64,000 bases of DNA, from the NCBI GenBank assembly GCA_016188045.1, contig JACPIM010000003.1, positions 181-64,180 of the forward strand, in the 5' to 3' direction. The notes under the pieces are model-generated. The model was given only the letters and a program-made list of their open reading frames with translations. It was not told where the DNA came from and searched no databases. The position numbers and the translations under genes are program-made. The DNA comes from Candidatus Woesearchaeota archaeon (GTDB lineage: Archaea; Nanobdellota; Nanobdellia; SCGC-AAA011-G17; JACPIM01). Shown in pieces: positions 1 to 15,642 of this stretch; position 1 is the stretch's first letter; every line of letters starts with the position of its first letter.

Positions 1-96
1 AATGATATATCTAAGATAATGGCAGTTTTAAGGAAAGTTGAAGATTATCTGTATTTTGAAGCTGGAAAAGAAGAAGAGGTGAGTGATGATGAGTAA
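1..96 (+). CDS. 3' end of an upstream CDS (partial, unknown product)
   Basis: Open frame from base 1 ([31 protein letters not shown]) ending TAA at 94-96, overlapping the radA start. Confidence 0.5.
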
Positions 97-2166: not shown

Positions 2167-2238
2167 TTTTTTTCTTTTTTAATCCTTAGAATTAACTTAA
2201 TGATCTTTTCTTAAGAATGAAATTCCTTTTTTTATTTC

Positions 2239-3156
2239 TTATAAATCATTGTCTTCCAATCTTTTAATCTTTTCTTGTAAGTCTATAACTAACCAAATCG
2301 CTGACGATATCAAAGTTCGTGCCCTTTCATTATCAACGTTTCCTAACTCTGGATGGCCTCCCTTATCCCTATCAAAAGAAAAAGACTTTAGTTTTGAAAA
2401 CTCTTCTTCATTGATAAATCTGTTTTTTAAGAATCCTATTTTATTGTTATAGCTATTATTTATAAATTCATCAAATTCTTCTTTGTTTATTTTATTATTT
2501 TTATTTAACTTTCTCAAACAATTATTAATTACTTTCTCAATGGTCCTACCAGCGCATAATACTGAAGTTTTTCCGAAACCAAACGAACTTATGTTTATTG
2601 CTTCTTTAATGTCTTTATGATAGTCTTTATTAATTTGATCTATCCCATCATAATTTTCTAATGAATTGAAATAATCAAGCAATACTTTCAAAGAGTCTGA
2701 GACCTTGCGACATTCAAAAGATAATTTTAATTTCAAATTCTCATTAGATAATTTTATAGATTGATCGCTTTCGGTAACGTTCTTAATTCTTTTTGTCATC
2801 AAAGAGCAAATATACTTTTCGTTAATCTTATCTATTCTTTTTGGAATTCCTAACTCGGCTAATATTTCAGTATTAATCTCTGATATGTTCTTGTTTATGG
2901 CGCAGATCTTTTTTTGTAGATCATTAACAAATCCTTTTTGTTTCTTAGTCGTTAAGTATTTTGATCTAAGTTCTTTTGATTCTCCGATTATACACTCTTG
3001 AAGACTCCTCATCATAACAAATTTGTTAACTCTCTCTAGCATATCACGAATTTCTAATCCTATACCTGATAATACCATTCCCAAAAGTACTGATGTATGT
3101 ATACTTACACCCCTTCTTTCTTTCTCTAATTTTTTGTTCATTTTACTACCTACCAT
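2239..3156 (-). CDS. Hypothetical protein with a C-terminal HEPN/DUF4145-like domain
   Basis: 305-aa ORF; C-terminal CAGRTIEKVI...DRDKGGH gives an Rx4H pattern in a helical context. Confidence 0.5.
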   Translation of the reverse strand: MVGSKMNKKLEKERRGVSIHTSVLLGMVLSGIGLEIRDMLERVNKFVMMRSLQECIIGESKELRSKYLTTKKQKGFVNDLQKKICAINKNISEINTEILAELGIPKRIDKINEKYICSLMTKRIKNVTESDQSIKLSNENLKLKLSFECRKVSDSLKVLLDYFNSLENYDGIDQINKDYHKDIKEAINISSFGFGKTSVLCAGRTIEKVINNCLRKLNKNNKINKEEFDEFINNSYNNKIGFLKNRFINEEEFSKLKSFSFDRDKGGHPELGNVDNERARTLISSAIWLVIDLQEKIKRLEDNDL

Positions 3157-3318
3157 AAAATTCTTCTTGAATTACCTTCATTATGGTCTCCAAGTTTAAG
3201 GGCTTTTTGGGGATCTGTGTTTAGGTACCCAACCATTTAGTTCAACTTCCTCCTCGTTCCTTGAACCATAAACTTCGTAATATTTGGTTTGTCTAGGAGA
3301 TTTAATCCTAAGGATAAA

Positions 3319-3439
3319 CGCCCCCACGAGGATTTGAACCTCGGTCTCAACCTTTTTGCTAAAAAGCCGCAAGGTCGAATTCTTACTGGTAATTAACCAT
3401 CAATTTAGGGTTAATAAATCCAGGCTAAACTATGGGGGC
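3319..3439 (-). tRNA. tRNA-Arg(GCG) with two BHB introns (left att copy)
   Basis: Acceptor GCCCCCA/TGGGGGC, T arm CGAGG-TTCAAAT-CCTCG; 34-nt D-loop intron (3384-3417, central helix CTGG/CCAG); 13-nt 37/38 intron (3354-3366, helix TTGC/GCAA); spliced loop TTGCGGA. Confidence 0.92.
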
Positions 3440-3458
3440 AATAAGAAACTATGTTTCT
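3320..3458. repeat. 139-bp direct repeat, left att site
   Basis: Identical by eye to 14712-14850. Confidence 0.95.
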
Positions 3459-3476
3459 ATTTTCTATGGCCTTATT

Positions 3477-3632
3477 ATGGTTAAAGTTCAAAGACATAAG
3501 AACGGATATTTTATATCAATACCAAAATCTAAAGCGAGGCTTATGGGATTAAACGGTGGAGAAGAATTTGATGTTGAATATGACAGGATAAATAAGAACT
3601 TGGTATTCATTTTGATTAATAATAAGGTGTGA
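3477..3632 (+). CDS. AbrB/MazE-like antitoxin
   Basis: MVKVQRHKNGYFISIPKSKARLMGLNGGEEFDV pattern; overlaps the PIN gene start. The track's upstream ATG lies inside the tRNA. Confidence 0.75.
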   Translation: MVKVQRHKNGYFISIPKSKARLMGLNGGEEFDVEYDRINKNLVFILINNKV

Positions 3633-4054
3633 TTAGTTTGGTAGAAAAATATTACGTCGATACTTCAATATGGATTGACCTTTATGAAGATAGGAAAGGC
3701 TATAATCAAGAGCCATTGGGAGATTTTGCCTTAGGATTATTTGCTTTGATAAGAGCAAAGAACAATAAATTAATTATTACGGATATTTTGATTAAAGAAT
3801 TAGAAATGAATTATTCTTTGGAAGAGATAAATGGAATGATCAAACCTTTTGAAGATATTATTGAAAAAATTATTAGTACAGGAAAACAACGTGAAGAAGC
3901 AAGAAATATTGCTAATAACAGGAATATACCTGCTGGAGATGTTTTACCTGCTATTATAGCAAGAGACCATAAACTGATTCTTATAACAAGAGACAATCAT
4001 TTTAAACAATTAGTGGATATTTCTGGATATTATAAACCAGAAGATATCATTTGA
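3629..4054 (+). CDS. PIN-domain (VapC-like) toxin
   Basis: YYVDTSIWID, IPAGDVL, LITRDNHF. Confidence 0.85.
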   Translation: MISLVEKYYVDTSIWIDLYEDRKGYNQEPLGDFALGLFALIRAKNNKLIITDILIKELEMNYSLEEINGMIKPFEDIIEKIISTGKQREEARNIANNRNIPAGDVLPAIIARDHKLILITRDNHFKQLVDISGYYKPEDII

Positions 4055-4307
4055 GTTTCTTTGAGATTTCTTCAAAAGCTTTTTTTCTAATTTCTTCATA
4101 TTCTTTCTCTGTTGTTTTCTTTTTTGATGCTCCTTTTAGATGAGATATACTAATCATTGCTTCTTTTAACTTTGTTTCTTCTACCTTTTCCCTTAAAGCA
4201 TTTCTAATGAATTCTGTTCTATTCTGATAGCCTTCTTTCTTGACAATACTGTCTATATCTACTAGAAATTTATCTTCTAATTTAACCGTTATCATTTCAG
4301 TTACCAT
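4047..4307 (-). CDS. Ribbon-helix-helix (CopG/NikR-like) protein
   Basis: ITVKLEDKFLVDIDSIVKKEGYQNRTEFIRNALRE. Confidence 0.85.
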   Translation of the reverse strand: MVTEMITVKLEDKFLVDIDSIVKKEGYQNRTEFIRNALREKVEETKLKEAMISISHLKGASKKKTTEKEYEEIRKKAFEEISKKLK

Positions 4308-4397
4308 ATAGTTATTGTATATACTATAGATATATAAAGATTTCTATTTTATTTTGGGTATATTTTAAATATTCGCAATACTTTCTGTTTAAACACA

Positions 4398-4682
4398 ATG
4401 TATATATCCTCAAGAGTATTCAGTAGTTCAAGAAATTTTGGATTAGTTATTATGGCCGTTATACTTTTTTCTAGTGGATATTTATATTTCTTTGAAAATA
4501 AGAGGGAATGGCTAATAGGTTTAATGTTTATTGCTTCTGCTCTTGGTATTGCAAAAGATCTTTATGGGTGGCATAAAGAAGATGAAGAATTAAAGAAAAG
4601 AAGAGATACGTTCCATATTGCTGGTGGTTCATCAAAAAAAGAAGAACCTTACAAACATATCAAAGAGTTATTAAAAAAATGA
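4398..4682 (+). CDS. Small membrane protein
   Basis: Two hydrophobic segments and a charged C-terminal tail. Confidence 0.6.
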   Translation: MYISSRVFSSSRNFGLVIMAVILFSSGYLYFFENKREWLIGLMFIASALGIAKDLYGWHKEDEELKKRRDTFHIAGGSSKKEEPYKHIKELLKK

Positions 4683-4816
4683 GACTAACAAAAAACAATG
4701 AATCTTTTATGGTGATATTGCCTAAACAGATAGCCCTAGCTAAAGGATGGGAACATGGGCAACCCTTGGAATGTAAAATAACAGAAAGAGGAGATTTATT
4801 GATAAAAGAGAAATAA
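4679..4816 (+). CDS. Small AbrB/SpoVT-like protein (not in ORF track)
   Basis: Manual translation MRLTKNNESFMVILPKQIALAKGWEHGQPLECKITERGDLLIKEK*; ATGA overlap with the upstream gene. Confidence 0.75.
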   Translation: MRLTKNNESFMVILPKQIALAKGWEHGQPLECKITERGDLLIKEK

Positions 4817-4874
4817 TAAAAATACTAATCGTGATACGGAATATTTAAAAATATAGGGGTTTATGTCTTAGATA

Positions 4875-5054
4875 ATGAGTAAAGAAAAATTTATAAAAAT
4901 ATATTCTAACCTTCCACTAAATCTTCGTAGAGAGATAATTACTATTATTGATAAGGAACCTATAACATGGAATGTTGCTTATTTAGAGATTAGAAATAAT
5001 ACCGAATTAGGTAAAAAAGTTTTAAAAAATCTGGAGGATTTAAAGATAATCTAA
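4875..5054 (+). CDS. 59-aa hypothetical protein (not in ORF track), first gene of the protease module
   Basis: MSKEKFIKIYSNLPLNLRREIITIIDKEPITWNVAYLEIRNNTELGKKVLKNLEDLKII*; TAATG coupling to the next gene. Confidence 0.8.
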   Translation: MSKEKFIKIYSNLPLNLRREIITIIDKEPITWNVAYLEIRNNTELGKKVLKNLEDLKII

Positions 5055-5263
5055 TGGTTAGTCAAGAAGAAATTAAAAACCTTGTAATAGCTAGGCTAGA
5101 GACTCTCCCTAGCAATAAAAAGATATCTATAGGTTCTAAGGGAGAGTTTACAAAAGAAGAAATTATTGAACATGTAAAAAAAGGAGATTCTATAGGTAAA
5201 ATGATGGAAGATATTGAATTGGGATTCTTGAGGGCTATGAAAGGTGGTTTATTGAATGAATAG
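5054..5263 (+). CDS. 69-aa hypothetical protein, second gene of the protease module
   Basis: Translationally coupled on both sides; weak similarity to 4875-5054. Confidence 0.8.
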   Translation: MVSQEEIKNLVIARLETLPSNKKISIGSKGEFTKEEIIEHVKKGDSIGKMMEDIELGFLRAMKGGLLNE

Positions 5264-5897
5264 TCTTCTTTTAACTAGACCAGACCACGATGATACTACA
5301 CATTATTTGTATCATTGGAGTATTGAATTTATTGAATTGGCGCAGAAGAAAAATATTAGGGTATTTGACCTAAAGGGTGAAAAAGCAACTAGAAAACAAG
5401 TGGAAGGTCATTTATCAAAAAAAGAGCCCAATTTGGTTATCTTCAATGGGCATGGCGATGTTAATATTATTGCAGGATATAAAGATGAGCCTTTGATCAT
5501 TTTGGGTGAAAATGATAGTTACCTAAACTCAAAAATAGTCTATTCTCGGTCTTGTAAATCTGCTAAGGGACTAGGTAGAAATTCTAATGCTAAGGCATAT
5601 ATTGGTTATAAAGAGGATTTTATCTTTTTTTATGAACCAGATAAACTTTCAAGACCACTTATAGATAAGACGGCACAACTATTTTTGGAGCCCACTAATA
5701 AGTTTGTGACTTCTTTAATCAAAGGTAATAGCATAGCTGAATCTCAGGATAAATCTAGTCAAGAATACCAGAATAATATACAAAGATTATTAGTTAATGA
5801 TATTAATAAGGAAGATACCCATATGGCTAAATATCTTTGGTGGAATTGGAAAAGTCAGACTATTACTGGAGATACTGATGCAAGAATTGAAACCTAA
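5256..5897 (+). CDS. Putative caspase/gingipain-like (clan CD) cysteine protease
   Basis: VIFNGHG and IVYSRSC motifs (His-Gly ... Ser-Cys) about 33 aa apart, followed by AYIGY. Confidence 0.6.
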   Translation: MNSLLLTRPDHDDTTHYLYHWSIEFIELAQKKNIRVFDLKGEKATRKQVEGHLSKKEPNLVIFNGHGDVNIIAGYKDEPLIILGENDSYLNSKIVYSRSCKSAKGLGRNSNAKAYIGYKEDFIFFYEPDKLSRPLIDKTAQLFLEPTNKFVTSLIKGNSIAESQDKSSQEYQNNIQRLLVNDINKEDTHMAKYLWWNWKSQTITGDTDARIET

Positions 5898-5922
5898 TTT
5901 TTGATATTAATTTTAATAACTA

Positions 5923-6126
5923 CTATTTCTTTTTCCAAAAAAATCCAGCCTTAGCTTTTAGTCTTTCTATTTTGCCTTCTTTTTCTAGGTCTGCTAAAAC
6001 CCTATATAGTAAATGCCAATTTATTATTTTCTTAGCTTTTTTCTGCAAATCATTGAGAACTTCATTTGTAGACTTTATTGAATCTTTCTCTAAAACCTTT
6101 AAAACCGAATCCTTGTACTTTGACAT
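5923..6126 (-). CDS. Small winged-helix DNA-binding protein
   Basis: STNEVLNDLQ...NWHLLYRVLADLEKEGKIER...FFW. Confidence 0.7.
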   Translation of the reverse strand: MSKYKDSVLKVLEKDSIKSTNEVLNDLQKKAKKIINWHLLYRVLADLEKEGKIERLKAKAGFFWKKK

Positions 6127-6256
6127 ACAAAGAGTTGTATCAAATGTTTAAATAAGCTGATATCCAAATGTTTGTATCAAATATTTTATCTATTTTTGTT
6201 ACTATAAGTAGTCAAATAAGTTTATAAATAAATGATTAAACCAAATTAATGTAAAA

Positions 6257-8362
6257 ATGTCAACTAAATTATATAAACCAAGTTTTTTAAAAAAATTAGC
6301 TATCAACGGATTAGCTTCTATTGTTGGTTTAAGTAATGTGGCCTGTTCACCAGACAGCATTCTTTCTGGATTAATTGGTTTTGGATTTGGGCATATTACT
6401 CAGCAACAAGTACAACAAACATCTACGCCAACACTTGAAGGAATTATAAAACCTACTATGACTCCTCAATTTACTGAAGAGCCAAAGCCAACAGCCACGC
6501 AAACAAATACTCCTGTTCTTCCTACTTATACGCCAACATTTATGTCTACATCAACAGGAATAAGTACCCCGATCAATACGCTTGTACCTACATATACACC
6601 ATCACCTGTTCCAATAAATACATTTACAATAACTCCTACACCAACTAAAACTACAGCTTATACACCGATGCCAACATCATCCTATACTCCTACAAGTATA
6701 CCTACAATAATATTCACAAATACTCCTGAAAGTACCATAACACCAATTCAAACTTCAACATTTACCCCTACACAAATAGAAACATCTATTCCAACTGAAA
6801 TTCCTACTGCAACTTATACTTTTACTCCGACAGCAATAAATACCATTACATCCACTAACACACCACCATCAACGTCAACACCTACTGAAACAAAAACTCC
6901 AACTTTAGAAGCAACTTTAACAGAAACTCCAATTGATACTCCTACTATAATTCCAACAATTGAATCTACATTAACTCCAACATTTACTAATACTCCTTAT
7001 GATACAAATACACCAACTAAAACACCCACATTAACAGATACACCTACTGCTACGGTTACACATACATTTACACCAACTATAACTCCAACAGAAACACCAT
7101 TGCCAACATCAACTCCCATACCAAGTGCAACACCAATACCAACTAATACTTATACACTTACGCCTACTGAAACATTTACTAGTACGATTACTCCTACTTT
7201 AACATTTACGCCAACAGCTACATCTACTTATACTGAAACTGCTACAGATACTCCAACTGTAACTAACACCCCTACTATAACTTCAACAAGCACTAGTACT
7301 TTCACAGTAACACCAACGAATACTAACACACCTACAGCAACTCCTACGTTTACTTCAACTCCAACTGATACAGCTACACCTACAAGTACGCCAACTCTTG
7401 AATATATAACTGGAACAGAATGGGAAGAAATTGCTTCATTAAATATTGCTAGGGAAAGTCATGGAGCAGCCATAGGTAATGATGGTAAAATATATGTTGT
7501 AGGCGGTGTTGTTTTGAATGAAGAACAAGGAAGATTTGTATCTCTAGATACAATAGAGAGATATGACTTTGATCAAAATAGTTGGGAAATATTAAATTCT
7601 AAACTAAACGTATCAAGACATGATTTAGCAGTTGCTTCAGATAATAACGGAAGAATATATGCTATTGGCGGGATACATAATGATTTGAGCAATATACTTA
7701 AAACTGTTGAAAGATTTGACCCATCTAAACCAGAAGATGGTTGGATTTTTGTTGCTGATTTACCTGAAATAACATATGGGTTAAAAACAATACTTGCTCA
7801 AAATAAGATATATGCTATAGGTGGTGCACATCAAGGACTTACCATAGATTATATTCCAGATAAAAAAGTTATAAAATATAATCCTGATAGTAATGCTTGG
7901 GAGTTTGGTAATGAATTAAATATTCCTCGGCTAAATTTTGGAGTAGCAAAAGATAATGAAGATAAGTTATATGTATTTGGTGGCCAAACCCTTGTTTATG
8001 GACCAGATGGACCACTTTATACATATACACTTACAACCGAAAGATTTGACTTAAATGCACCTGATTATGGTTGGAGATTTGTTGCTCCCATATTAATTTT
8101 TGGTGCTGGTGGTGGCGGTATAAGTGTTTCAAGTGCAATGGGTGACTCTGGTAGCATATTCCATATTGGAATAGATAGTGTTGGTACCGTTCAAGTATAT
8201 AAACCACAAAATGGGTTTTGGGAAATTCACTCTAATTTAAATCTCGGTAGATTCAATGCTGTTGCAGTAACGGACGACAAAAACCGTATTTATGTTATAG
8301 GTGGAAGTGCTCCCTTTCAACGTTTATCCTCTGTCCAAAGAACCGTTCTTACAACAAAATAA
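6257..8362 (+). CDS. Surface protein with Thr/Pro-rich stalk and C-terminal Kelch beta-propeller
   Basis: Lipobox-like SNVAC; about 330 aa of TPT repeats; Kelch repeats (KIYVVGG, RIYAIGG, KIYAIGG, KLYVFGG, RIYVIGG). Confidence 0.85.
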   Translation: MSTKLYKPSFLKKLAINGLASIVGLSNVACSPDSILSGLIGFGFGHITQQQVQQTSTPTLEGIIKPTMTPQFTEEPKPTATQTNTPVLPTYTPTFMSTSTGISTPINTLVPTYTPSPVPINTFTITPTPTKTTAYTPMPTSSYTPTSIPTIIFTNTPESTITPIQTSTFTPTQIETSIPTEIPTATYTFTPTAINTITSTNTPPSTSTPTETKTPTLEATLTETPIDTPTIIPTIESTLTPTFTNTPYDTNTPTKTPTLTDTPTATVTHTFTPTITPTETPLPTSTPIPSATPIPTNTYTLTPTETFTSTITPTLTFTPTATSTYTETATDTPTVTNTPTITSTSTSTFTVTPTNTNTPTATPTFTSTPTDTATPTSTPTLEYITGTEWEEIASLNIARESHGAAIGNDGKIYVVGGVVLNEEQGRFVSLDTIERYDFDQNSWEILNSKLNVSRHDLAVASDNNGRIYAIGGIHNDLSNILKTVERFDPSKPEDGWIFVADLPEITYGLKTILAQNKIYAIGGAHQGLTIDYIPDKKVIKYNPDSNAWEFGNELNIPRLNFGVAKDNEDKLYVFGGQTLVYGPDGPLYTYTLTTERFDLNAPDYGWRFVAPILIFGAGGGGISVSSAMGDSGSIFHIGIDSVGTVQVYKPQNGFWEIHSNLNLGRFNAVAVTDDKNRIYVIGGSAPFQRLSSVQRTVLTTK

Positions 8363-8431
8363 ACTCATACTTTACTCGTTATAATACTCAATTCAATAAT
8401 AAAGAAATATTTAGGAGATACTGAAATACTA

Positions 8432-9271
8432 ATGAAGAAAGTATATGAATGTGGGAAATGTGGAATAAATATTAAACCACCGATTCCAGACACTTGTCCT
8501 AATTGCGGTAAAACATTTAACAAAGAATTAATTCCCTTTTCAGCTTCTAAAAAAAGAAACAAGGTTCTAGGTTGGGTCGGGGTTTCAGTTAGTGTTTTAA
8601 CTTTAATCTCTTTAGTGGTTTTATTTGTAATCCCTGTTTCATATCCTATCACTGTAGGTTATACAATAAAAGAACCATATGATGCTCAAGAGGCTTATAC
8701 TGTTGATGTTCCATATGAAGTAACTGTTCCTTATCAAGAAAGTCTTCCTTATACTGATGTAGAAGAGATTAAAGGTGAAGAATTAAAATATGATATTATT
8801 GGTGAAAAAAATCCACAGCCAACAAGCGAGTATCAGTGCTTTTTAGTGGTATTTTGTAATTATTTTTATGAGATTACAATAAAATTAAAGAATACCGATA
8901 GTATTGCAGGAGAGTTTACCATTAATGGTGAATGGAGAGATGGTCAAGACAAAGTTTTTTCAGATGGAAAAAGAAAAGAAACTAGGAGACTAGAACCCGG
9001 AGAAACTTACAAGTTTGATTTTAAATATGACCAAGCAAAAACACAAGATGTAAAGTTCCAATATACTGTTTCTGCTAGTGAAACAACTTATCAACAAGTA
9101 ACTAAGTATAAAACTGAAACGAAGTCTAAGACTGAGACGAGATATAGAACTGAAACAAGATACAGGACAGTAATAAGATATAGAGATGTACCTAAAGAAA
9201 GAATAGAATATGGAAAGGCCAATTTATGGAGAATATGGACTAATAAAGTTAGTTATTACAGGAGAGAATAA
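8432..9271 (+). CDS. Zn-ribbon, TM and repeat-stalk membrane protein
   Basis: CGKC/CPNC, one TM helix, (E/V)PY repeats and RYRTET repeats flanking a beta-rich domain. Confidence 0.7.
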   Translation: MKKVYECGKCGINIKPPIPDTCPNCGKTFNKELIPFSASKKRNKVLGWVGVSVSVLTLISLVVLFVIPVSYPITVGYTIKEPYDAQEAYTVDVPYEVTVPYQESLPYTDVEEIKGEELKYDIIGEKNPQPTSEYQCFLVVFCNYFYEITIKLKNTDSIAGEFTINGEWRDGQDKVFSDGKRKETRRLEPGETYKFDFKYDQAKTQDVKFQYTVSASETTYQQVTKYKTETKSKTETRYRTETRYRTVIRYRDVPKERIEYGKANLWRIWTNKVSYYRRE

Positions 9272-9693
9272 TGGCAAGATGTGCAGATTGTGATAGAAAA
9301 GTGGGTGGGTTATTTGGTAGAGCTGGATATACTTGTGATAGGTGTGGTTGTGACATTTGTGGTAATTGTGTTAATCGAGAAGATGGGGAAGATTATTGTA
9401 AGAGGTGTTGGGCAAATAAATCTGGTCGTGGTTGTTTTATAGCTACTGCTGCTTATGGAACTCCTTTTTCTGAAGAGATTAATGTTTTACGTGATTGGAG
9501 AGATAAATCTTTGATAACTAATAATTTTGGCAGGTTATTTGTTAAAACCTATTATAGATTTAGTCCACCCATTGCTCAGTTTATTGAAAATAAAGAAGGG
9601 TTAAAAAAGGCTGTAAGGGTAGTATTAAATCCTTATATCAAATTTTTAAAAAATAAGGGGTATAATAAAAGAGATAAATACACTACTAAATAG
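9271..9693 (+). CDS. Zn-finger plus CFI-box-CTERM domain protein
   Basis: Four CxxC pairs, then GCFIATAAYG...LRDWRD...FVKTYYRFSPPIA. Confidence 0.8.
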   Translation: MARCADCDRKVGGLFGRAGYTCDRCGCDICGNCVNREDGEDYCKRCWANKSGRGCFIATAAYGTPFSEEINVLRDWRDKSLITNNFGRLFVKTYYRFSPPIAQFIENKEGLKKAVRVVLNPYIKFLKNKGYNKRDKYTTK

Positions 9694-9878
9694 TATATTA
9701 TGATTTAGCTTTTTTATAATGCTTTTAAATAAAATTTTCTCTATTGTAACTAACCTGTTTTACAATAAATAACTTCGTTTATACTTGGTTCTTTACTAAA
9801 ATCAATCATTTAAAACTGAGCAGAATTACTTTATTGATTCAACTTAATGAAATTCTTTGTTTATAACATCTAATTTTA

Positions 9879-10100
9879 TTAAAAATGCCTAGCTCTAACC
9901 CAAAAACCTTTTTTATATGCTCTCAACTCGTGTTCCTTTTCTGCTCTCTTGGTAGCATCCTCAATAATCTTATTTATTTTTTCATAGATTATTGGGTAGC
10001 ATTCTTTAGTTAATGTTGCATTTTGATTTATGCTTTTTACTAAAAATCTTAAATATTTTTTAATTAAAATTCTTTCTTTGTAATATGGAGTATAAACCAT
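9879..10100 (-). CDS. Putative minimal histone-fold protein
   Basis: Helix1 (IKKYLRFLVKS), loop (ATLTKE), long helix2 (…KINKIIEDATKRAEKE), terminal VRARHF. Confidence 0.55.
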   Translation of the reverse strand: MVYTPYYKERILIKKYLRFLVKSINQNATLTKECYPIIYEKINKIIEDATKRAEKEHELRAYKKGFWVRARHF

Positions 10101-10101
10101 C

Positions 10102-10590
10102 TTACTTAAAAGAATTTCTCCATGTAGTTGATAGTGAGTCTAGTAGGTTATGCCCTAATAAGCCTATTGCACTTGCAATTCCAATTATGGGCGGGAAAGC
10201 AATAAATAATATAGCTAAAACTATCAAGATAAAACTTTTTTTATGTAACCATAATGATTGGAGTCTATGAAATGGGCCAATATTACTCATGGATTTAATT
10301 GCTAAAAGTGTAAGCAGGATAATAAGAGAAATGGCTTTTTTATCTAGAACAATAAAATAAATGGCTAGTATTAGTCCTATGATTGTAAAATATCTATGAG
10401 CTAAACTTGTTTCATTATCTAAATCTGGTAACAACGTAAAAAATAAACCAATAAGTAAAAAAACTGAGTAAGGATTCATATTAAAAGTGTTCTCTTGAGA
10501 AAAATTAATCCAGTGATACTGAGAATTTAAAGCTATAAATCCAATTAATAAAACTAATCCAAAGATTACGTGGCTCTTTAGGTCTGACAT
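10102..10590 (-). CDS. Membrane-bound metal-dependent hydrolase (YdjM/DUF457-like)
   Basis: SHVIFG, LLPDLD, FHR...WLH, GHNLLD motifs within TM segments. Confidence 0.75.
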   Translation of the reverse strand: MSDLKSHVIFGLVLLIGFIALNSQYHWINFSQENTFNMNPYSVFLLIGLFFTLLPDLDNETSLAHRYFTIIGLILAIYFIVLDKKAISLIILLTLLAIKSMSNIGPFHRLQSLWLHKKSFILIVLAILFIAFPPIIGIASAIGLLGHNLLDSLSTTWRNSFK

Positions 10591-10591
10591 T

Positions 10592-10774
10592 TTATAGCTC
10601 GTTAGATATTATTTCTTGTTTCTTTGGTTTTGGTTCATTCTTGAAGAGGTTGGCGGAATTCCCTATCCTCAAAGAAATATATTTTTTACCATTTTTATCT
10701 ATATTAATCCATCCTGCGACATCTAAATTGCCCTTATAATCTGGTTTCCTTCCATTTGATTTTTTATTTTCCAT
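10592..10774 (-). CDS. Small DUF736-like (putative ssDNA-binding) protein
   Basis: KPDYKG...AGWINIDKNGKKYISL. Confidence 0.5.
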   Translation of the reverse strand: MENKKSNGRKPDYKGNLDVAGWINIDKNGKKYISLRIGNSANLFKNEPKPKKQEIISNEL

Positions 10775-10786
10775 GTTTTATACCTC

Positions 10787-12226
10787 CTAAGATATTATTT
10801 CTAAGGTGTCAATTTTTTTCGGAAGTACTGTAGAAGACTTCCTTACTATGACAGTATATGGGAATAAATTCTTGACATCCTGCTCTTTATTCTGTCTCTC
10901 TAGGTCAAATATTAAGTCTAGAGAGAATTCTGGATGGTTTATTGGGGTGTAAATAGGAGTATATTCCTTGATAGCTTCAATTATATTAAAATGACTTAAA
11001 TGCTCAAATAAGTCATCAAAGGGCATATTGATTAACCCACTTTGACTCCCTCCTTGACATCTTCTATAGAAGACGGAGTTGCCTTCTTTATGTGAAAATT
11101 CAATTAGGTTCTTATCCTCTAGTTCCCTAATCCTTTTCTTTATGGTATTTTTTGATTTTATACTTAAACTCCTTTGTATTATCTCCCTAGGTATTGGTTT
11201 AGTAAAATCTCCTTTAGTGTATTCTTCAACAAAGTCTAAAATTGTTTGTAACCTTTCATCAAAACCCTTATATGATTGGTTAAAGAATCTGCCACATATT
11301 TTGACGGCGTTTAGAAAATCTTGTGGCTCTGAAACAACAAACATAATTCCATTAATTTCTATGGTGTATCTTTGTAATTGAAAAAGCCAAGATATAGCAC
11401 AAGTGAAGGCTAGAAGTTTTTTTAAGTCTCTTTGGGATCGAGGATTATCATAATTTATAATTTCCTTTCCTTCTTCATCCTCTAATAAATAATTCCAATA
11501 TGGTATTAATACATAATCTACTTTCAATGATTCAAATCCTTTTTTTATCCATGAATTATTATTTCCTTGAGACTCAATAAGGGTTAAGGGGTCACCATGT
11601 TTAATAATCGTGTCTTCATTCACTGCCCTTGTTTTATTAGGATTTCCTCTTAAGGCTATATCTATAAAACGAGTTGCCGATTCTTCATCATTCGAAATTT
11701 CTGTTGTAGAATACAATACCGTCTTTTGTTCTTGCTTGCTTGTTCTTGTTGTTTTATAACCAGTTAAAACATCTTTTTTTAATGAAATAGTTCCACCTTC
11801 ACTCATTTGTTTTATGGTTTCTTTTAAATGGTAGTTTGCACCATCAATTTGTTCTTTGTTAACTTCCGAATAACAGATTATATCATATTTAGCTATATCA
11901 TCTTCCATCACGCTTCTAGTTGCGTTAGTTAAGAAAATATAAGAGTCATCTGGAAAGTGTTTCAAGATTGATCTCATTAAATTATCTTTTCCTACTGAAG
12001 TATCCCCAGAAAATTTTATTGATTTTCTTAAACTAGAAGGTTTTAATTTAGAGGTACATGTGCCTATGAATCCGGTCATCTTTTCGTTATCATCATTGAT
12101 GTGGTCTTTGGATAGTTCTTCATGAATATAATACAAAAGTTTAGGGCTTCTAAATTTTGTTTTGGCCTCCGTAAATAAACCAATTTCTTGTTCTGAAACT
12201 TCTTTAGTAGTTTTTATTAGAGTCAT
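10787..12226 (-). CDS. P-loop NTPase with C-terminal wHTH, putative replication helicase of the element
   Basis: Walker A GDTSVGKD, Walker B-like IICYSE, wHTH (NTIKKRIRELEDKNLIE). Confidence 0.65.
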   Translation of the reverse strand: MTLIKTTKEVSEQEIGLFTEAKTKFRSPKLLYYIHEELSKDHINDDNEKMTGFIGTCTSKLKPSSLRKSIKFSGDTSVGKDNLMRSILKHFPDDSYIFLTNATRSVMEDDIAKYDIICYSEVNKEQIDGANYHLKETIKQMSEGGTISLKKDVLTGYKTTRTSKQEQKTVLYSTTEISNDEESATRFIDIALRGNPNKTRAVNEDTIIKHGDPLTLIESQGNNNSWIKKGFESLKVDYVLIPYWNYLLEDEEGKEIINYDNPRSQRDLKKLLAFTCAISWLFQLQRYTIEINGIMFVVSEPQDFLNAVKICGRFFNQSYKGFDERLQTILDFVEEYTKGDFTKPIPREIIQRSLSIKSKNTIKKRIRELEDKNLIEFSHKEGNSVFYRRCQGGSQSGLINMPFDDLFEHLSHFNIIEAIKEYTPIYTPINHPEFSLDLIFDLERQNKEQDVKNLFPYTVIVRKSSTVLPKKIDTLEIIS

Positions 12227-12437
12227 CTGTTTTCCTCCAAAAACTTAAGAATAATTTTTCCCGAACTATTTGGCTAGGCGTAATCTTTTTATTTTCGAGA
12301 ATTTGTCTTGCAGTTCTTTCACGTTCGATAAGCTCTAAAATTTCTTCGTTAAGAAAAAAGGTGCTCTTCTTATAGATGCTCTTTGGTCGAGCAAAATTTA
12401 AATATAAGTTTTCTTTTAAATTATCTGTATTCGTCAT
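12204..12437 (-). CDS. Small RHH-like DNA-binding protein
   Basis: KKSTFFLNEEILELIER...TPSQIVREKL. Confidence 0.55.
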   Translation of the reverse strand: MTNTDNLKENLYLNFARPKSIYKKSTFFLNEEILELIERERTARQILENKKITPSQIVREKLFLSFWRKTDDSNKNY

Positions 12438-12534
12438 AATACCTTCTTGAGGGAAAAATTTCCTCTATTATTTTTCTTCTTCTTTTATCGTATCAATTAA
12501 ACATTGAAGCCAGTCATCTTTTTTGTTTTCCATT

Positions 12535-12599
12535 TTACTTACTTGATAAAGTAAGTAACTTTATAAATCTTTTGGTTACTTACTTTAGAGAGTAACTAA
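12535..12599. promoter_or_regulatory. Paired palindromic operators flanking a TATA box in the divergent promoter
   Basis: TTACTTAC-N8-GTAAGTAA (12535-12558) and TTACTTAC-N8-GTAACTAA (12576-12599) around TTTATAAA (12560-12567). Confidence 0.7.
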
Positions 12600-12631
12600 A
12601 TTTTATAAAGGATTAAATTAGTAAATTATTT

Positions 12632-13372
12632 ATGGAACATTACAAACAAAAGAAATTTTATAGCATTATTAATAGTGCCCCACTATCACACATAATCTTT
12701 CTTGTAATCGGTGGCATAAAAACTACTACAGATTTAATAAAAACTACCAAGTTAAGGGATAGTTTATTATCAAAAAGATTAAGGATTCTAGAAGATAATG
12801 GTTTTATAATTAAGAAGAGGGAAGGTAAAACAAGATATCTTTATATTAACAATGAACCCCTGATTGAAACTTTTATTATTGCAGCTCTTTCTTACAGATT
12901 TAGTATAACTAATAATAAAATAAATAGGTGGGTGGAATCAAAAGAAATTAAAAATATTTTTAAAAAAGTAAAGAAAAATAAACTCTTGTTTGGTCTGATT
13001 GATTCTATTATCGAGTCTTATTTTAAATCTATTAAAATTAGGCGTTCTATGATTCATGAAACTTGTCCATTATGTAAACATCCTTTATCTATAGAAACTC
13101 ATGGTACATCTTGCACTAATCCAGAATGCGATTTTATTTATATTATAAAAGAAATTTTTACCTTATATGAAGTTATGTATGATTTGGTCGATCTTATAGT
13201 AATATCTCTTGAAGATACACGTGGTTTTTGGCCATATTTAACTAAGAAGGAAAAAAAAGAGTTAAAAGACTTAGATATAATTTTTGGTCTTGGTAAGATT
13301 AAATTAATTGATTTTAGTATGAATATCTATCATAATTATTTTAGTAGTATAAATAAAAAAAAGGAAAAATAA
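12632..13372 (+). CDS. wHTH (ArsR/MarR-like) regulator with Zn ribbon
   Basis: LLSKRLRILEDNGFIIKKREGKTRYLY; CPLC...CTNPEC. Confidence 0.7.
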   Translation: MEHYKQKKFYSIINSAPLSHIIFLVIGGIKTTTDLIKTTKLRDSLLSKRLRILEDNGFIIKKREGKTRYLYINNEPLIETFIIAALSYRFSITNNKINRWVESKEIKNIFKKVKKNKLLFGLIDSIIESYFKSIKIRRSMIHETCPLCKHPLSIETHGTSCTNPECDFIYIIKEIFTLYEVMYDLVDLIVISLEDTRGFWPYLTKKEKKELKDLDIIFGLGKIKLIDFSMNIYHNYFSSINKKKEK

Positions 13373-14659
13373 CTATTTTAATTTATTTATTATCTCTATT
13401 AATCTAGGATTTTCCTTTATTTTTTCAGCTAAGGCTTCTTTCATTGAAGGTATTAGAGCATTTAGCAACTCTTCTTTTAGTTGTTCTCTTTCTATTGCCT
13501 TTTTTCTATCTAATAACCTTTTACAGAATGGACAAACCTTTTCAGCAAAACCAACACTTCGACCGCAGATACATGTTTTAGTCTTTGGCAAAAATTGTTT
13601 ATATTTTGGGTCATCGATTAATCCTCTTTTAGCTAATTCTTTCCTATATGAGTCTAAATTATTACTTAGATCATAAGTAGATAATTGTCTTGTAGAAGTC
13701 CAACCTGCTCTATGTTGTATTTCAACATCACTGTCTCCTCTTAGTCTGCTAAACGTAACACCATTCCTTTTTAACGAATAAGCTGTAATTCTTTTATTTA
13801 ATCCTATTTTTTTACATGCTTTCCTTAATTTCTTATTTATATTATAAGGAGTTAATTGTTTATCTTTTCTTCCATTTGCTATAAATAAAAATGAATCTTT
13901 ATCTTGTTTAAACTTGTGTTGGTCATAAAATTTTAGTAAATAAGGATAACTGTCAATACATTGTAGAAATTTAGTTCCTTCTTTACCATGGGAACTAATA
14001 AAAATTCTCGCATGATTTTCATTTATTTCTAAATCACTTATTCTAGTGTAGCATATTTCTTGTGGTCTCCCAAGCGATTCAACAGATAAATTAAGGTAAA
14101 ATTGCATTTGTGGATCATTACTAAAATAATTCACTAATTTTTCAAATTCTTCCCATGTTAATCTATCATCTTTCAGTTTTTGTTTGCTTTTATCAATTCT
14201 TTTAGATAGGTGTCTTACAACAAAAGGAGTTAATGTATCATCTGTTCTGCCTTTTTCGTCTTTTTCTGGGAATAGGTCTTTCCATATGAATTTTAGATTT
14301 TTAATAAAGTCGGCTTTAGATTGAGAACTTTTGTTTACTTCATGAGCTAAGGCTACTATTTCATTAATATCATCCCTATCACATTCTGTTAAGTTTTTTT
14401 TGGTTGTGTTTACTATAAATAATAATGTACAAAATACTCTTAATCTTCTTACATAACTAGTATCCCTACTTTCAAAGATTTTAGCTAATTTCTTAAAATA
14501 GGTTAAATTGGATGGATTTTTACAATAATATTTCCTAGTAGCTCCTTTTTTTGATTTTGCTTTGGGCAATTCTTTTAACTGCTCTAAATTAGCTATAAAT
14601 CTTTCATACCTTGCTTTATTTCCATATATGTCATCCTCAGCCATTTTAAACTCCTGCAT
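13373..14659 (-). CDS. int: Tyrosine recombinase/integrase with C-terminal Zn ribbon
   Basis: LGRPQEI (R), HGKEG (K), YSLKRNG, HRAGW, STYD (Y); CICG...CPFC; 52 bp from the att repeat. Confidence 0.92.
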   Translation of the reverse strand: MQEFKMAEDDIYGNKARYERFIANLEQLKELPKAKSKKGATRKYYCKNPSNLTYFKKLAKIFESRDTSYVRRLRVFCTLLFIVNTTKKNLTECDRDDINEIVALAHEVNKSSQSKADFIKNLKFIWKDLFPEKDEKGRTDDTLTPFVVRHLSKRIDKSKQKLKDDRLTWEEFEKLVNYFSNDPQMQFYLNLSVESLGRPQEICYTRISDLEINENHARIFISSHGKEGTKFLQCIDSYPYLLKFYDQHKFKQDKDSFLFIANGRKDKQLTPYNINKKLRKACKKIGLNKRITAYSLKRNGVTFSRLRGDSDVEIQHRAGWTSTRQLSTYDLSNNLDSYRKELAKRGLIDDPKYKQFLPKTKTCICGRSVGFAEKVCPFCKRLLDRKKAIEREQLKEELLNALIPSMKEALAEKIKENPRLIEIINKLK

Positions 14660-14710
14660 CGTTACTAGTTTATATTATTTAGTCGACTGAGCATTGGAAA
14701 ATAGAAATCT

Positions 14711-14831
14711 TGCCCCCACGAGGATTTGAACCTCGGTCTCAACCTTTTTGCTAAAAAGCCGCAAGGTCGAATTCTTACTGGTAATTAACCATCAATTTAG
14801 GGTTAATAAATCCAGGCTAAACTATGGGGGC
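14711..14831 (-). tRNA. tRNA-Arg(GCG) with two BHB introns (right copy, native upstream flank)
   Basis: Same sequence as the left copy; introns 14746-14758 and 14776-14809; discriminator A versus G in the left copy. Confidence 0.92.
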
Positions 14832-14850
14832 AATAAGAAACTATGTTTCT
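14712..14850. repeat. 139-bp direct repeat, right att site
   Basis: Identical by eye to 3320-3458. Confidence 0.95.
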
Positions 14851-14904
14851 TATCAACTTCCTTGTAATCACTCGTTTCTTATCAACTTCTTTAAAAACAA
14901 GGGG

Positions 14905-15207: not shown

Positions 15208-15483
15208 ATGGGATTTGTTTTAATAACTTACAGATTAATGCCTGAATCGGTTGAAACTGATTTGGATAAGATGAAAGAAGAAGTTGAGCTTATTATTAAT
15301 AAATTTGGTGGCAAGATAGAGAAAGTTGATAAAGAACCTGTTGCTTTTGGTTTGGTTTCTTTAATTATTGTTATAAGTTTAAATGAAAGCATAACTAATC
15401 TAGATCCTTTAGAGGACTTATTAAGAAATGTTGTTGGTGTTGAGAGCGCTGAATCTATAGATGTTAGAAGAATGGTAGGCTAA
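15208..15483 (+). CDS. ef1b: Translation elongation factor aEF-1beta
   Basis: RLMPESVETDL...EPVAFGLVSL...VESAESIDVRR. Confidence 0.93.
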   Translation: MGFVLITYRLMPESVETDLDKMKEEVELIINKFGGKIEKVDKEPVAFGLVSLIIVISLNESITNLDPLEDLLRNVVGVESAESIDVRRMVG

Positions 15484-15642
15484 ATAAGAAACTACGTTTT
15501 TTATCATCTTCCTTTTTAAAAATTACATAACTTCCATCATATCCTTAACTTGTTGTTTCTAATAAGTAGTAAAAATAGTAAGATTTATATATTAGTTCTA
15601 CTACTATTATTACTATCAATTAATAATAAAAATGAGGTTAAA

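Follow-up and report, generated by a model that had tools for sequence, protein, structure and literature searches.

An integrated element of about 11 kb with a predicted MCM-like helicase in a tRNA-Arg gene of a DPANN archaeon

Gene content of the element

The window is a 64,000-nucleotide stretch of contig JACPIM010000003.1 from a Candidatus Woesearchaeota archaeon (GCA_016188045.1). It contains an element flanked by a perfect 139-nt direct repeat (3320-3458 and 14712-14850, spacing 11,392). Besides a tyrosine integrase of the non-partitioning type, the element encodes a wHTH/Zn regulator and a putative RHH-helicase operon; toxin-antitoxin genes and surface-protein cargo are also present (Table 1). 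The base composition of the element is that of the host. At E<=0.01, nine of its proteins are without any profile match; for the 279-aa protein, all matches are sub-threshold.

Table 1. Features of the element and its attachment sites, in window coordinates.
Feature	Position	Strand	Details
Left att copy, window form (V1)	3320..3458	-	complete tRNA-Arg(GCG) and 19-nt leader
tRNA-Arg in the left copy	5' end 3439, position 72 at 3320	-	introns: 34-nt in D-loop, 13-nt at 37/38
10-nt core GCCCCCACGA	3320..3329		tRNA positions 63-72; the only sequence that V2 attL and attR have in common
AbrB/SpoVT-like small protein	3477-3632	+	candidate antitoxin, from position and weak PHROG match
PIN-domain toxin	3629-4054	+	PIN PF01850, E 7.7e-9
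CopG-type ribbon-helix-helix protein	4047..4307	-	RHH_1, E 9.6e-7
94-aa protein, then 45-aa AbrB/MazE-like protein	4398..4816	+	MazE_antitoxin, E 4e-4, below family cut-off
Three coupled genes (59, 69, 213 aa)	4875..5897	+	213-aa family without profile
67-aa winged-helix protein	5923..6126	-	phrog_9799, E 8.7e-7
Surface cargo (701-aa, 279-aa, 140-aa proteins)	6257..9693	+	Kelch, CFI-box profiles
Replication operon	9879..12437	-	77-aa RHH-like, 479-aa helicase, 60-aa, 162-aa YdjM-like membrane and 73-aa basic proteins
479-aa MCM-like AAA+ helicase, C-terminal wHTH	10787-12226	-	AF2 and Foldseek
77-aa RHH-like protein	12204-12437	-	no Pfam/NCBIfam match
Divergent control region	12438..12631		palindromic operators, TATA boxes
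246-aa regulator, ArsR-like wHTH	12632..13372	+	HTH_metalloreg, E 1.1e-6 (below family cut-off); HTH_5, E 0.005
Tyrosine integrase, 428 aa	13373-14659	-	Phage_integrase, 3.5e-11; gene intact when integrated
Int-proximal arm site GAGCATTGGAA	14688..14698		12 nt from core
Right att copy	14712..14863	-	tRNA-Arg(GCG) with complete host promoter-like motif (14832-14863)
Inverted partner TTCCAATGCTC	in 63-nt arm, outside window		15 nt past core

The AbrB/SpoVT-like protein and the PIN toxin appear to form a coupled VapBC-type pair (3477..4054), which, together with the other small toxin-antitoxin-like genes, may favor retention of the element. By our reading, the 94-aa protein has two hydrophobic segments; neither it nor the 45-aa protein that follows matched a virion protein in PHROGs. 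The 213-aa protein belongs to a family of 1007 clusters at E<=1e-3 in which G65, H66, G67 and C100 are invariant (alignment A2). The first-pass annotation had called it a protease, but it has no match in Pfam, NCBIfam, PHROGs, PADLOC or the PDB and shows only the invariant GHG...C pattern, and its AF2 single-sequence model was unusable. A copy of the 67-aa winged-helix protein with 63% identity lies on another integrase-linked island (L110).

The 701-aa protein combines a Pro/Thr-rich stalk with a Kelch propeller (Kelch families, E 1e-24) and probably begins with a lipobox signal; the propeller has a host paralogue on contig C9 that is 43% identical. The 279-aa protein may be composed of a Zn-ribbon, a TM segment and a β-rich domain, and the 140-aa protein contains a Zn-ribbon and a CFI-box-CTERM (CFI_box_CTERM, E 1.5e-28). 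The cargo would then be a Kelch lipoprotein, a CFI-box protein and the GHG...C-family protein. Surface and toxin-antitoxin cargo had been proposed earlier, and the profile matches to PIN, RHH and Kelch families agree with this.

Within the replication operon, what had been described as a P-loop ATPase is refined by modeling to a predicted MCM-like AAA+ helicase without an N-domain and with a C-terminal winged helix. In support of this fold, the AF2 model scored well (pLDDT = 78.5, pTM = 0.80) and the best 50 Foldseek matches in the PDB were all MCM proteins (E 2e-11). The helicase belongs to a divergent MCM family that lacks the N-domain and has only 17 relatives in the databases (alignment A1); in some of these, the helicase is fused to a primase domain, either a DnaG-type Zn-ribbon or Toprim. 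One relative is on a 9,084-bp circular plasmid seen in two runs, and others adjoin integrases in the same tRNA-int-wHTH-RHH-helicase order (e.g. L048). Still others come from contigs of head-tailed archaeal viruses, where they neighbor terminase, portal and prohead-protease genes. The element is absent from 40 related genomes, three of them from the same genus, none of which yielded the helicase. The excised circle would be replicated by this helicase together with the host primase and polymerase.

Profile searches were less kind to the remaining labels. Neither Pfam nor NCBIfam matched the proteins previously called DUF736-like (60 aa), histone-like (73 aa) and RHH (77 aa), and for the supposed hydrolase (162 aa) there is a sub-threshold YdjM match only (E 0.002). 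The repressor was recovered as an ArsR-type wHTH protein, but the match is weak; its Cys-rich C-terminal stretch resembles a Zn-ribbon. The divergent promoter is evident between this gene and the minus-strand operon, where a perfect palindrome TTACTTACTT/AAGTAAGTAA (12535-12558) is accompanied by TTTATAAA boxes and by a second palindrome related to it (12575-12600). Divergent transcription of the regulator and the RHH-helicase operon across these operators probably sets a switch between the integrated and replicating states. Overall, the first-pass annotation is partly confirmed: the repeat, the integrase and the lack of recognizable virion genes are borne out, and several gene labels found no profile support.

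The tRNA-Arg(GCG) target and two left junctions

As had been suggested, the 139-nt repeat has the character of an att pair, with only two copies in the 1.02-Mb genome and none in shuffles. On the minus strand it comprises an entire two-intron tRNA-Arg(GCG) gene and 19 nt of the host promoter. The spliced sequence is identified by ARAGORN as tRNA-Arg(gcg), and the exons are preserved in the G001 orthologue, where the 26:44 change is compensatory and the intron measures 47 nt. The left copy is without the BRE/TATA part of the host promoter and has G as the discriminator base (3319). The right copy has A (14711), and its 3' trailer is supplied by the element.

This left junction, V1, is present in the assembly of the window alone. 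Assemblies made independently from three runs represent the same strain (100% identity over 10,098 nt) and present a second junction, V2, in which the 10-nt core is followed by a 63-nt arm in place of the left tRNA copy. The same break point, directly after GCCTCCACGA, occurs in the same-genus genome G003.

The element could be real and the left tRNA copy nevertheless an artefact of MAG assembly, the true structure always being the core and the 63-nt arm. The three V2 assemblies are unbranched through 3459 and 14850/14851, the arm was not found anywhere in the MAG, and no other record contains the V1-specific ORF, all of which fit such an error. It is unlikely, however, since the two sides of the V1 joint (GTTTCT/ATTTTCT) have no common k-mer and thus offer no path for a de Bruijn chimera. 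The joint is also within a 75-kb contig, and a capture resembling that of λ gal would yield exactly the V1 structure.

The 139-nt repeat is instead probably a derived variant in which the host tRNA was captured, since the 63-nt arm completes an inverted repeat whose spacing is found again in another element and the copy near int fits a motif present in half of the integrase family. V1 would have arisen by an aberrant excision that lost the left arm and gained the adjacent tRNA gene with 19 nt of its promoter, followed by a re-integration that duplicated the whole tRNA. Loss at one end and gain at the other is reminiscent of λ gal and bio excision; unlike these, the V1 event is deduced from two junction forms only and does not involve packaging. 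The 11,392-bp circle proposed earlier would accordingly apply to the variant of the MAG only, whereas the form in the other three assemblies would give a circle of about 11,326 bp with the 10-nt core. The interpretation as an integrated element was supported.

V2 attL contigs of runs -420, -430 and -384 start at 3300/3301, a left-flank contig ends at 3329, and right-flank contigs of four runs start exactly at 14712 and continue unbranched through 14850/14851. The positions 3300/3301, 3329 and 14712 are the k=31 branch points expected for an empty attB (flank-tRNA) path beside attL and attR; thus, empty and occupied sites co-exist. The break points imply that only part of the natural population carries the element. 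Excision, circles and coverage were judged solely by where contigs end. None of the Logan contigs contains a complete integrase gene, and two of them break at 13556.

Integrase family and attachment-site geometry

The integrase, recognized as such from the outset, starts 53 nt from the end of the tRNA and belongs to a family of more than 470 proteins that is found in 25 of 150 further genomes from the order. Residues R198, K226, R298, W320, Y329, C363, C365, C376 and C379 are invariant (alignment A3), and the conserved C-terminal four-Cys motif may be a Zn-ribbon. At 16-18 of 20 loci a tRNA gene is immediately upstream of int, although the tRNAs differ. The relatives carry the names Nanoarchaeota or Woesearchaeota, which, with the small genome and the tRNA-gene site, agrees with the earlier view of a mobile element of a DPANN-type archaeon.

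The arm site near int and its partner in the 63-nt arm form an 11-bp inverted repeat straddling the core; 10 of 5000 shuffles matched it. The G003 attL arm and the L065 attR arm together give a 9-bp inverted repeat at identical 12/15-nt spacing. A WATGC motif is located 14-16 nt past the tRNA end at 8 of 20 integrase-family loci, and anywhere within 45 nt at 9 of 20 (1.6 expected). From this geometry, attP would consist of two inverted copies of TTCCAATGCTC, 12 and 15 nt to either side of the core, to which the integrase may bind. As a non-partitioning enzyme (type II, λ/pNOB8-like), it would recombine attP with the last 10 nt (63-72) of the host gene, placing the element just downstream of the tRNA body where it gives a new discriminator base and trailer.

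Relation to viruses, satellites and integrated plasmids

In agreement with the first-pass annotation, which recognized no capsid, terminase, relaxase or VirB4-like gene, no match to these, to portal or to defence families was obtained in Pfam, PHROGs, NCBIfam or PADLOC. The capsid proteins of small archaeal viruses (spindle-shaped, pleomorphic) are often missed by profiles. Since the helicase family is also used by head-tailed viruses, a viral or satellite origin is possible.

A provirus, either that of a small spindle-shaped or pleomorphic virus (intact or defective) with structural proteins that evade profiles or a head-tailed virus remnant reduced to its lysogeny and replication module, is quite improbable. 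BFVD structural matches do include fusellovirus proteins (e.g. SSV-K1 A460 at 1e-13), there are nine unannotated proteins, and the 94-aa, large stalked surface and small basic proteins recall a spindle virus set by our reading. However, no virion family was matched in PHROG, Pfam or NCBIfam at E<=0.1, the long charged tail of the 94-aa protein appears unlike known spindle capsid proteins, and the Kelch protein has its paralogue in the host. The terminase, portal and prohead-protease genes next to helicase relatives speak for a provirus, but the helicase is the only gene common to the element and the virus contigs. Furthermore, the integrase family is missing among 2.9 million IMG/VR contigs, and 20 islands with the same integrase have no terminase or portal relative within 14 kb.

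The earlier labels satellite-like and mobilisable were drawn from the layout alone. With an integrase, repressor, divergent regulator and helicase ahead of accessory genes in 11 kb, the element does resemble P4 or PICI-type satellites and pSSVi, and another DPANN lineage has been proposed to harbor satellites of plasmid origin (bioRxiv 10.1101/2025.02.15.638363). It might replicate with its own helicase and depend for packaging or movement on a co-resident head-tailed DPANN virus, with which the helicase family is shared, or on another element. There is little chance of this, as known and proposed archaeal satellites have one or more morphogenesis genes of a helper, for an AAA+ ATPase or capsid protein (bioRxiv 10.1101/2025.02.15.638363), and the searches recovered neither such a gene nor a packaging gene, relaxase or oriT in the element. 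A small terminase, capsid-size redirection and a cos/pac feature are likewise absent, and the genome search found no helper virus, CRISPR array or second int or helicase copy. Like pSSVi and pSSVx of Saccharolobus and the proposed SRCE satellites of (nano)haloarchaea (bioRxiv 10.1101/2025.02.15.638363), whose hosts include a DPANN lineage, the element is small and plasmid-derived in character with its own replication protein, and pSSVi also integrates into a tRNA gene. In contrast, those elements are defined by spread in helper-virus particles, and pSSVx and SRCE have a morphogenesis gene in common with the helper; the present element has no such gene and no known helper.

The element is probably best considered a cryptic integrative plasmid whose host is a DPANN archaeon resembling Woesearchaeales, and it adds a further case to a type already known, the archaeal integrated plasmid. 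Among the closest counterparts are the cryptic integrated elements of Thaumarchaeota. These islands are bounded by att sites, are mostly <20 kb and frequently occupy the 3' portion of tRNA genes, some of which contain introns (Krupovic et al. 2019, PMC6563490). They encode an integrase, wHTH/RHH regulators and sometimes MCM or a primase-helicase but no virion or conjugation genes, and their att sites can be as short as 8 bp; the reported figures are a median of 17 bp in Thaumarchaeota and 29-69 bp in Crenarchaeota (PMC6563490). The present island shares this organization, but differs in its DPANN host, in its divergent helicase family and, in V1, in duplicating a whole 139-nt tRNA gene, far above these att ranges.

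An MCM-type replicative helicase is also present in the TKV elements and in the pTN3 and pT26-2 families, whereas the helicase described here is without the N-terminal DNA-binding domain. These elements of Thermococcales and Methanococcales also integrate into tRNA genes and have free and integrated forms; however, their integrases are mostly of the SSV-type 'suicidal' class with a gene that is split on integration, while the present gene stays whole (PMC6972569, PMC8371274). In the model of Sugahara et al. (2012), as cited in PMC8371274, the attP sites of mobile elements serve as carriers of tRNA introns. The V1 form would be of this type, carrying an intron-bearing tRNA gene between cells.

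A two-intron tRNA-Arg gene at both ends of the element

The element is bounded by a perfect direct repeat of 139 nt whose two copies are spaced 11,392 nt apart in the window. These are the only full copies in the genome (1.02 Mb in 24 contigs, 92.6% complete), and the first 33 nt of the repeat have no other occurrence in the window and none in shuffled sequences. A composition-based island signal was considered and rejected, the GC content being about 0.30 both inside and outside the element with no step between them.

Read on the minus strand, the repeat contains a complete tRNA gene that both ARAGORN and Rfam missed when applied to the repeat. A call of tRNA-Phe made by ARAGORN in intron mode was wrong, and manual splicing gave tRNA-Arg(GCG). 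Folding of the repeat revealed an acceptor stem, a T arm and a bulge-helix-bulge at the anticodon. Removal of a 34-nt D-loop intron and a 13-nt intron at position 37/38 leaves a 74-nt sequence that ARAGORN identifies as tRNA-Arg(GCG). The orthologue in the same-genus genome G001 retains the exons, with a compensatory change at pair 26:44 and a 37/38 intron of 47 nt. For the entire genome, ARAGORN reports only 15 tRNAs; it is therefore probable that numerous tRNA genes in this lineage contain introns and have escaped annotation.

The repeat extends from tRNA position 72 to a point 19 nt upstream of the tRNA gene, and the discriminator base differs between the copies (G at 3319, A at 14711). The 19-nt leader is part of a promoter-like motif, AAGGAAGwTGATAAGAAACnnnGTTTCTTAT, that is found across the host genome in about 25 copies, many of them followed by GGAGG (for example, on other contigs of the assembly, C5:21887, C12:500, C13:5191 and C24:64673). 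Since the motif is whole at the right tRNA copy and cut off at the repeat boundary at the left copy, the host promoter has stayed with the right copy and the 19 nt are host DNA. The motif is highly conserved, contains a palindrome of 7–9 bp, frequently lies directly 5' of GGAGG and a start codon, and has another copy in G001. It has the look of a strong consensus promoter or of an operator shared within this archaeon. The features of the element and its flanks are collected in the table.

Features of the integrated element and its flanks in the window
Feature	Position	Strand	Size	Remarks
radA and overlapping LAGLIDADG_3 gene	83-2141			left flank; Pfam tags
Region from endonuclease gene to tRNA	2184-3319			305-aa ORF, no family match
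Left repeat copy	3320-3458	minus	139 nt	tRNA part 3320-3439
AbrB/MazE-like, CopG-RHH and AbrB-PIN genes				towards left end of element
Three-gene module, last gene	5256-5897		213 aa
wHTH protein			67 aa	within element
CFI-box-CTERM protein		plus		E 1.5e-28
279-aa protein		plus	279 aa	Zn-ribbon/TM/beta-rich in our reading
Kelch protein		plus	701 aa	propeller and Pro/Thr-rich stalk
Tightly packed operon		minus		77-aa RHH-like, 479-aa ATPase, 60-aa, 162-aa membrane and 73-aa basic proteins
Divergent region			194 nt	perfect 10+10 palindrome TTACTTACTT, second related copy, TATA boxes
ArsR-like wHTH protein			246 aa	Cys-rich tail; next to integrase
Tyrosine integrase	13373-14659	minus	428 aa	intact; right end; Phage_integrase 3.5e-11; phrog_1
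Right repeat copy	14712-14850	minus	139 nt	tRNA part 14712-14831
Promoter-like motif	14832-14863
Promoter-like motif	15483-15514

Integrase, arm sites and two junction forms

The integrase ORF is uninterrupted and lies 53 nt from the att core. The catalytic residues R, K, R, W and Y are invariant in an alignment of its family. With the gene intact after integration and the att site outside of it, the enzyme is of type II (pNOB8/lambda-like, non-partitioning). An integrase of the SSV type (type I, "suicidal", partitioning) was rejected since the gene is whole and neither repeat copy overlaps it. The family comprises more than 470 proteins at about 50–66% identity, those with names being mostly labelled Nanoarchaeota, Woesearchaeota or Nanoarchaeia. 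Its distribution is patchy: of 150 other genomes in the order, 25 have it, with at most three copies per genome. A tRNA gene lies just upstream of the integrase start at 16 of 20 loci according to ARAGORN, and at two more by eye, with targets that include Leu, Gly, Glu, Ala, Ser, Val and Arg. No relatives of the helicase, terminase or portal were found within 14 kb in 20 islands of this family, and TerL, portal and protease from the database contigs L023 and L046, used as tblastn queries, all gave no match in these islands; nor was any relative of the integrase family found in IMG/VR. Judged by its relatives, the integrase is a general tRNA-targeting enzyme of DPANN islands with varied content. 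The full integrase of the window has no record in other assemblies. Logan contigs from two runs both start at 13556, inside the integrase gene at its C-terminal Zn-ribbon, which may reflect a branch or a drop in coverage.

Contigs of the same strain in the independent Logan assemblies (SRR12113420, -430 and -384) match the window at 100% identity from 3459 on, over as much as 10,098 nt, and present a second form of the left junction (V2). This junction is made up of the chromosomal flank, GCCCCCACGA, 63 nt that are absent from the MAG, and then the sequence from 3459. The sequence common to the left and right ends (attL and attR) in V2 is 10 nt only. The form in the window (V1) is without the 63-nt arm and has in its place the rest of the tRNA and the 19-nt leader. 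A search of IMG/VR for the V2 attL returned no copy.

The ends of these contigs are informative. Those with the V2 attL begin at 3300/3301, a left-flank contig stops at 3329, and right-flank contigs from four runs start exactly at 14712 and continue unbranched past 14850. Since attL and attR have only 10 nt in common, branches at k=31 are impossible from these two alone. The break points at 3300/3301, 3329 and 14712 are expected if a third path joins the flank directly to the tRNA, and the lack of a break at 3458/3459 or 14850/14851 identifies this path as the empty site rather than the form in the window. The contig ends thus indicate that occupied and empty sites co-exist, which is indirect evidence of current polymorphism in a natural population. 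Apparent junctions at the ends of two other Logan contigs, L031 and L034, were rejected as Nextera adapter sequence; the adapter (AGATGTGTATAAGAGACAG) had been left on these public contigs at bases 1–19 of L031 and in the last 18 bases of L034, mimicking a junction.

When the integrase-side arm, the core and the 63-nt arm are joined, an 11-bp perfect inverted repeat is formed (GAGCATTGGAA/TTCCAATGCTC), one copy preceding the core by 12 nt and the other following it by 15 nt, an arrangement that was matched in 10 of 5000 shuffles. The flank in the same-genus genome G003 continues into GCCTCCACGA, beyond which the DNA is unrelated. The G003 arm, combined with the integrase-side arm of the metagenome contig L065, produces an inverted repeat of 9 bp (GTGTAACAA), again with the 12/15-nt spacing. 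Among the 20 integrase-family loci, a WATGC motif is present 14–16 nt past the tRNA end in eight, and anywhere within 45 nt in nine where 1.6 would be expected; TTCCAATGCTC of the element fits this motif. From these comparisons, the 63-nt arm is assigned to the element, the inverted arm repeats are putative integrase-binding sites, and V2 would represent the canonical attP. The findings add a widespread DPANN integrase family that is positioned beside many different tRNA genes, with a shared arm motif whose distance from the tRNA end is fixed.

The simplest route to V1 would be a single aberrant excision from a V2 integrant, with one cut between the arm and 3459 and the other between 14850 and 14851. 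The excised 11,392-bp circle would then re-integrate into an empty tRNA-Arg gene. This scheme reproduces the observed structure of V1 exactly and is formally like the formation of lambda gal and bio phages. V1 is likely to be a tRNA-capture variant, and its origin fits the idea, cited in PMC8371274, that attP sites can carry tRNA introns between cells. The joint at 3458|3459 was seen in one assembly only, and the V1-specific ORF has no record in other assemblies; on that account V1 could be an assembly artefact. Both sides of the joint share no k-mer, which makes a graph chimera unlikely, and an artefact is considered improbable. Taken as a tRNA-capture variant, V1 is without one arm site, and its excision may rely on the 139-bp identity; one archaeal integrase recombines identical segments as short as 104 bp (PMC8371274). 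Pick-up of a whole tRNA has already been proposed as a mechanism for the spread of tRNA introns, and the two junction forms provide a concrete, testable case of an element acquiring a whole intron-containing tRNA gene.

The tRNA-Arg site is an integration hot spot. The 10-nt break recurs in G003 with a different insert, and the contigs of G001 and of a further related genome, G002, end at or near the tRNA-Arg gene. Seven metagenome contigs of another uncultured species with the same tRNA 3' end (within L053–L064; JGI samples Ga0208375, Ga0208958 and Ga0208245) have five different sequences beside the tRNA end, two of which start with integrase genes and one of which has a ParE toxin gene. This points to several elements competing for one tRNA-Arg site in that species. 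In several relatives, nothing lies between radA and tRNA-Arg, and about 10 nt separate the end of radA from the tRNA 3' end; in the window, the endonuclease gene and the 305-aa gene intervene. G003 has no nucleotide match to the region between the endonuclease gene and the tRNA, and two other small genes are found there instead. The region is variable and possibly consists of the remains of older insertions.

An MCM-like helicase family

Among 5.8 billion proteins, no more than 17 are related to the 479-aa protein of the operon, with identities of 38–50%. An alignment-based AlphaFold model (pLDDT 78.5, pTM 0.80) was searched against the PDB with Foldseek, and the best 50 matches were all MCM2-7 or archaeal MCM proteins (best E 2.3e-11, probability 1.0). 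These matches span the AAA+ core, the lid and the C-terminal winged helix, and a wHTH is located at residues 321–381. Two conserved motifs, TRF and EGGTxSLKKD, are in our reading similar to the SRF arginine finger and the EQQTISIAKAG motif of MCM. The Pfam MCM model (PF00493) gave no match to the protein; against the same model, the relative P0008 scored 21.1 bits (E 1.8e-4) where the cut-off is 23.3. A profile of the family matched nothing in the PDB sequences except the wHTH. The Walker A motif begins near residue 74, the AAA+ core of the model has just three helices ahead of it, and the N-terminal OB-fold/Zn DNA-binding domain is absent. Since this domain is missing and the Pfam MCM model is not reached, the protein is best described as an MCM-like AAA+ protein and predicted helicase rather than as a canonical MCM. 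Some relatives have an N-terminal DnaG-type Zn-ribbon or Toprim domain, and some have PF27228, a family named after a Methanothermobacter plasmid protein. Matches in BFVD were to viral primase-helicases and fusellovirus proteins.

The family occurs in varied surroundings. The relative P0011 is encoded on a contig of 37 kb together with a large terminase and a portal, P0012 adjoins a terminase, and genes for a terminase, a portal and a prohead protease are present on the IMG/VR contig L046. P0003 is encoded on a 9,114-nt contig that two runs yielded in rotated versions, its ends overlapping by 30 nt, as expected for a circle of 9,084 bp. P0008, P0013, P0016 and the L045 locus are near tyrosine integrases with small HTH/RHH genes upstream. 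Contig L048 presents the same order as the window: a tRNA, an integrase of the same family (46% identity), a divergent Zn-finger protein, an RHH protein and the helicase. The helicase is the sole gene common to these loci and the element. From its presence in tailed-virus contigs, a plasmid and integrated islands, it is a replication module that moves among them. This stripped-down MCM, with an ATPase core that has nearly no sequence-profile coverage, connects archaeal plasmids, integrated islands and tailed viruses. It was not found among 40 related genomes.

The 9,084-bp circle (L028/L029; Logan SRR26113682/SRR26113681), whose starts differ between the runs, is probably a small plasmid of an archaeon; its genes include those for an MCM-like helicase (45% identity) and a resolvase as well as an HNH gene. 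L048 (MFUO01000018.1) and the contigs L047/L050, with the archaeal integrase of this family and the helicase, have been binned as Nomurabacteria (a CPR bacterium) and Methanosarcinales; they are probably mis-binned mobile-element contigs.

Class and gene content of the element

Profile searches of the element against four libraries (Pfam, PHROGs, NCBIfam and PADLOC) matched no capsid, terminase, portal, relaxase or VirB4 gene and no defence family, a result that holds within the sensitivity of profile HMMs and with nine ORFs unannotated. The first-pass annotation had likewise recognized no capsid, terminase, relaxase or VirB4-like gene. No profile match was obtained for the relaxase, oriT, coupling protein or VirB4 that mark an integrative mobilisable or conjugative element, or for the virion hallmarks of a provirus (a major capsid protein, terminase and portal, or any other). 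What remains is an att-bounded island at the 3' end of tRNA-Arg(GCG) with an integrase and variable presence, as in cryptic integrated elements (CIEs) and integrative plasmids. The closest described class is that of the Thaumarchaeota CIEs, which are att-flanked, integrase-bearing, often located in tRNA genes and free of virion genes; some contain MCM or primase-helicase genes, and their att sites may be as short as 8 bp (PMC6563490). The element is probably an integrative plasmid. With nine ORFs unannotated, a cryptic small virus is a possible but improbable alternative.

The element had also been called satellite-like. Satellite status, as for pSSVx/pSSVi and the proposed SRCE of (nano)haloarchaea, requires a morphogenesis function derived from a helper, and none was found: no profile matched a capsid protein, morphogenesis ATPase, small terminase or cos/pac site with which such satellites, including P4/PICI-like ones, hijack the virion of a helper, and the only gene in common with the virus contigs is the replication helicase. 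A satellite of head-tailed DPANN viruses, sharing their MCM-type replication module, dormant in tRNA-Arg and packaged by a helper, is improbable. If the element were one, tailed archaeal viruses would have their first satellite, and the tRNA-capturing variant would show that such elements move intron-bearing tRNA genes between ultra-small archaea.

As an integrative plasmid, the element is a well-defined new example and not a new kind of system, and current views are not overturned. Nearly all that is known of DPANN mobile elements comes from surveys of viruses in metagenomes. For the small element described here, base-level resolution extends to the target, the core, the arm sites, the regulatory region and the replication gene. 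What is new is the host lineage, the poorly covered helicase family, the conserved att geometry and the likely tRNA-capture variant.

PADLOC identified no defence system on the element, and the MAG has neither a CRISPR array nor a spacer-like match. The labels "DUF736-like", "histone-like" and "protease" that had been given to three of its genes found no profile support. The 162-aa membrane protein has a match to YdjM that is below threshold, and the Kelch protein carries, in our reading, a putative lipoprotein signal. The 279-aa protein has 12 weak relatives and no match in the PDB. The 213-aa protein, to which the protease label had been attached, belongs to a family of 1007 clusters at the 50% identity level, all of about 215 aa, for which profile searches of Pfam, NCBIfam, PHROG and the PDB found no relative. 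A single-sequence AF2 model was unusable (pLDDT 38). Residues G65, H66, G67 and C100 are invariant in the family, and the GHG motif and cysteine are compatible with a Cys-His enzyme.
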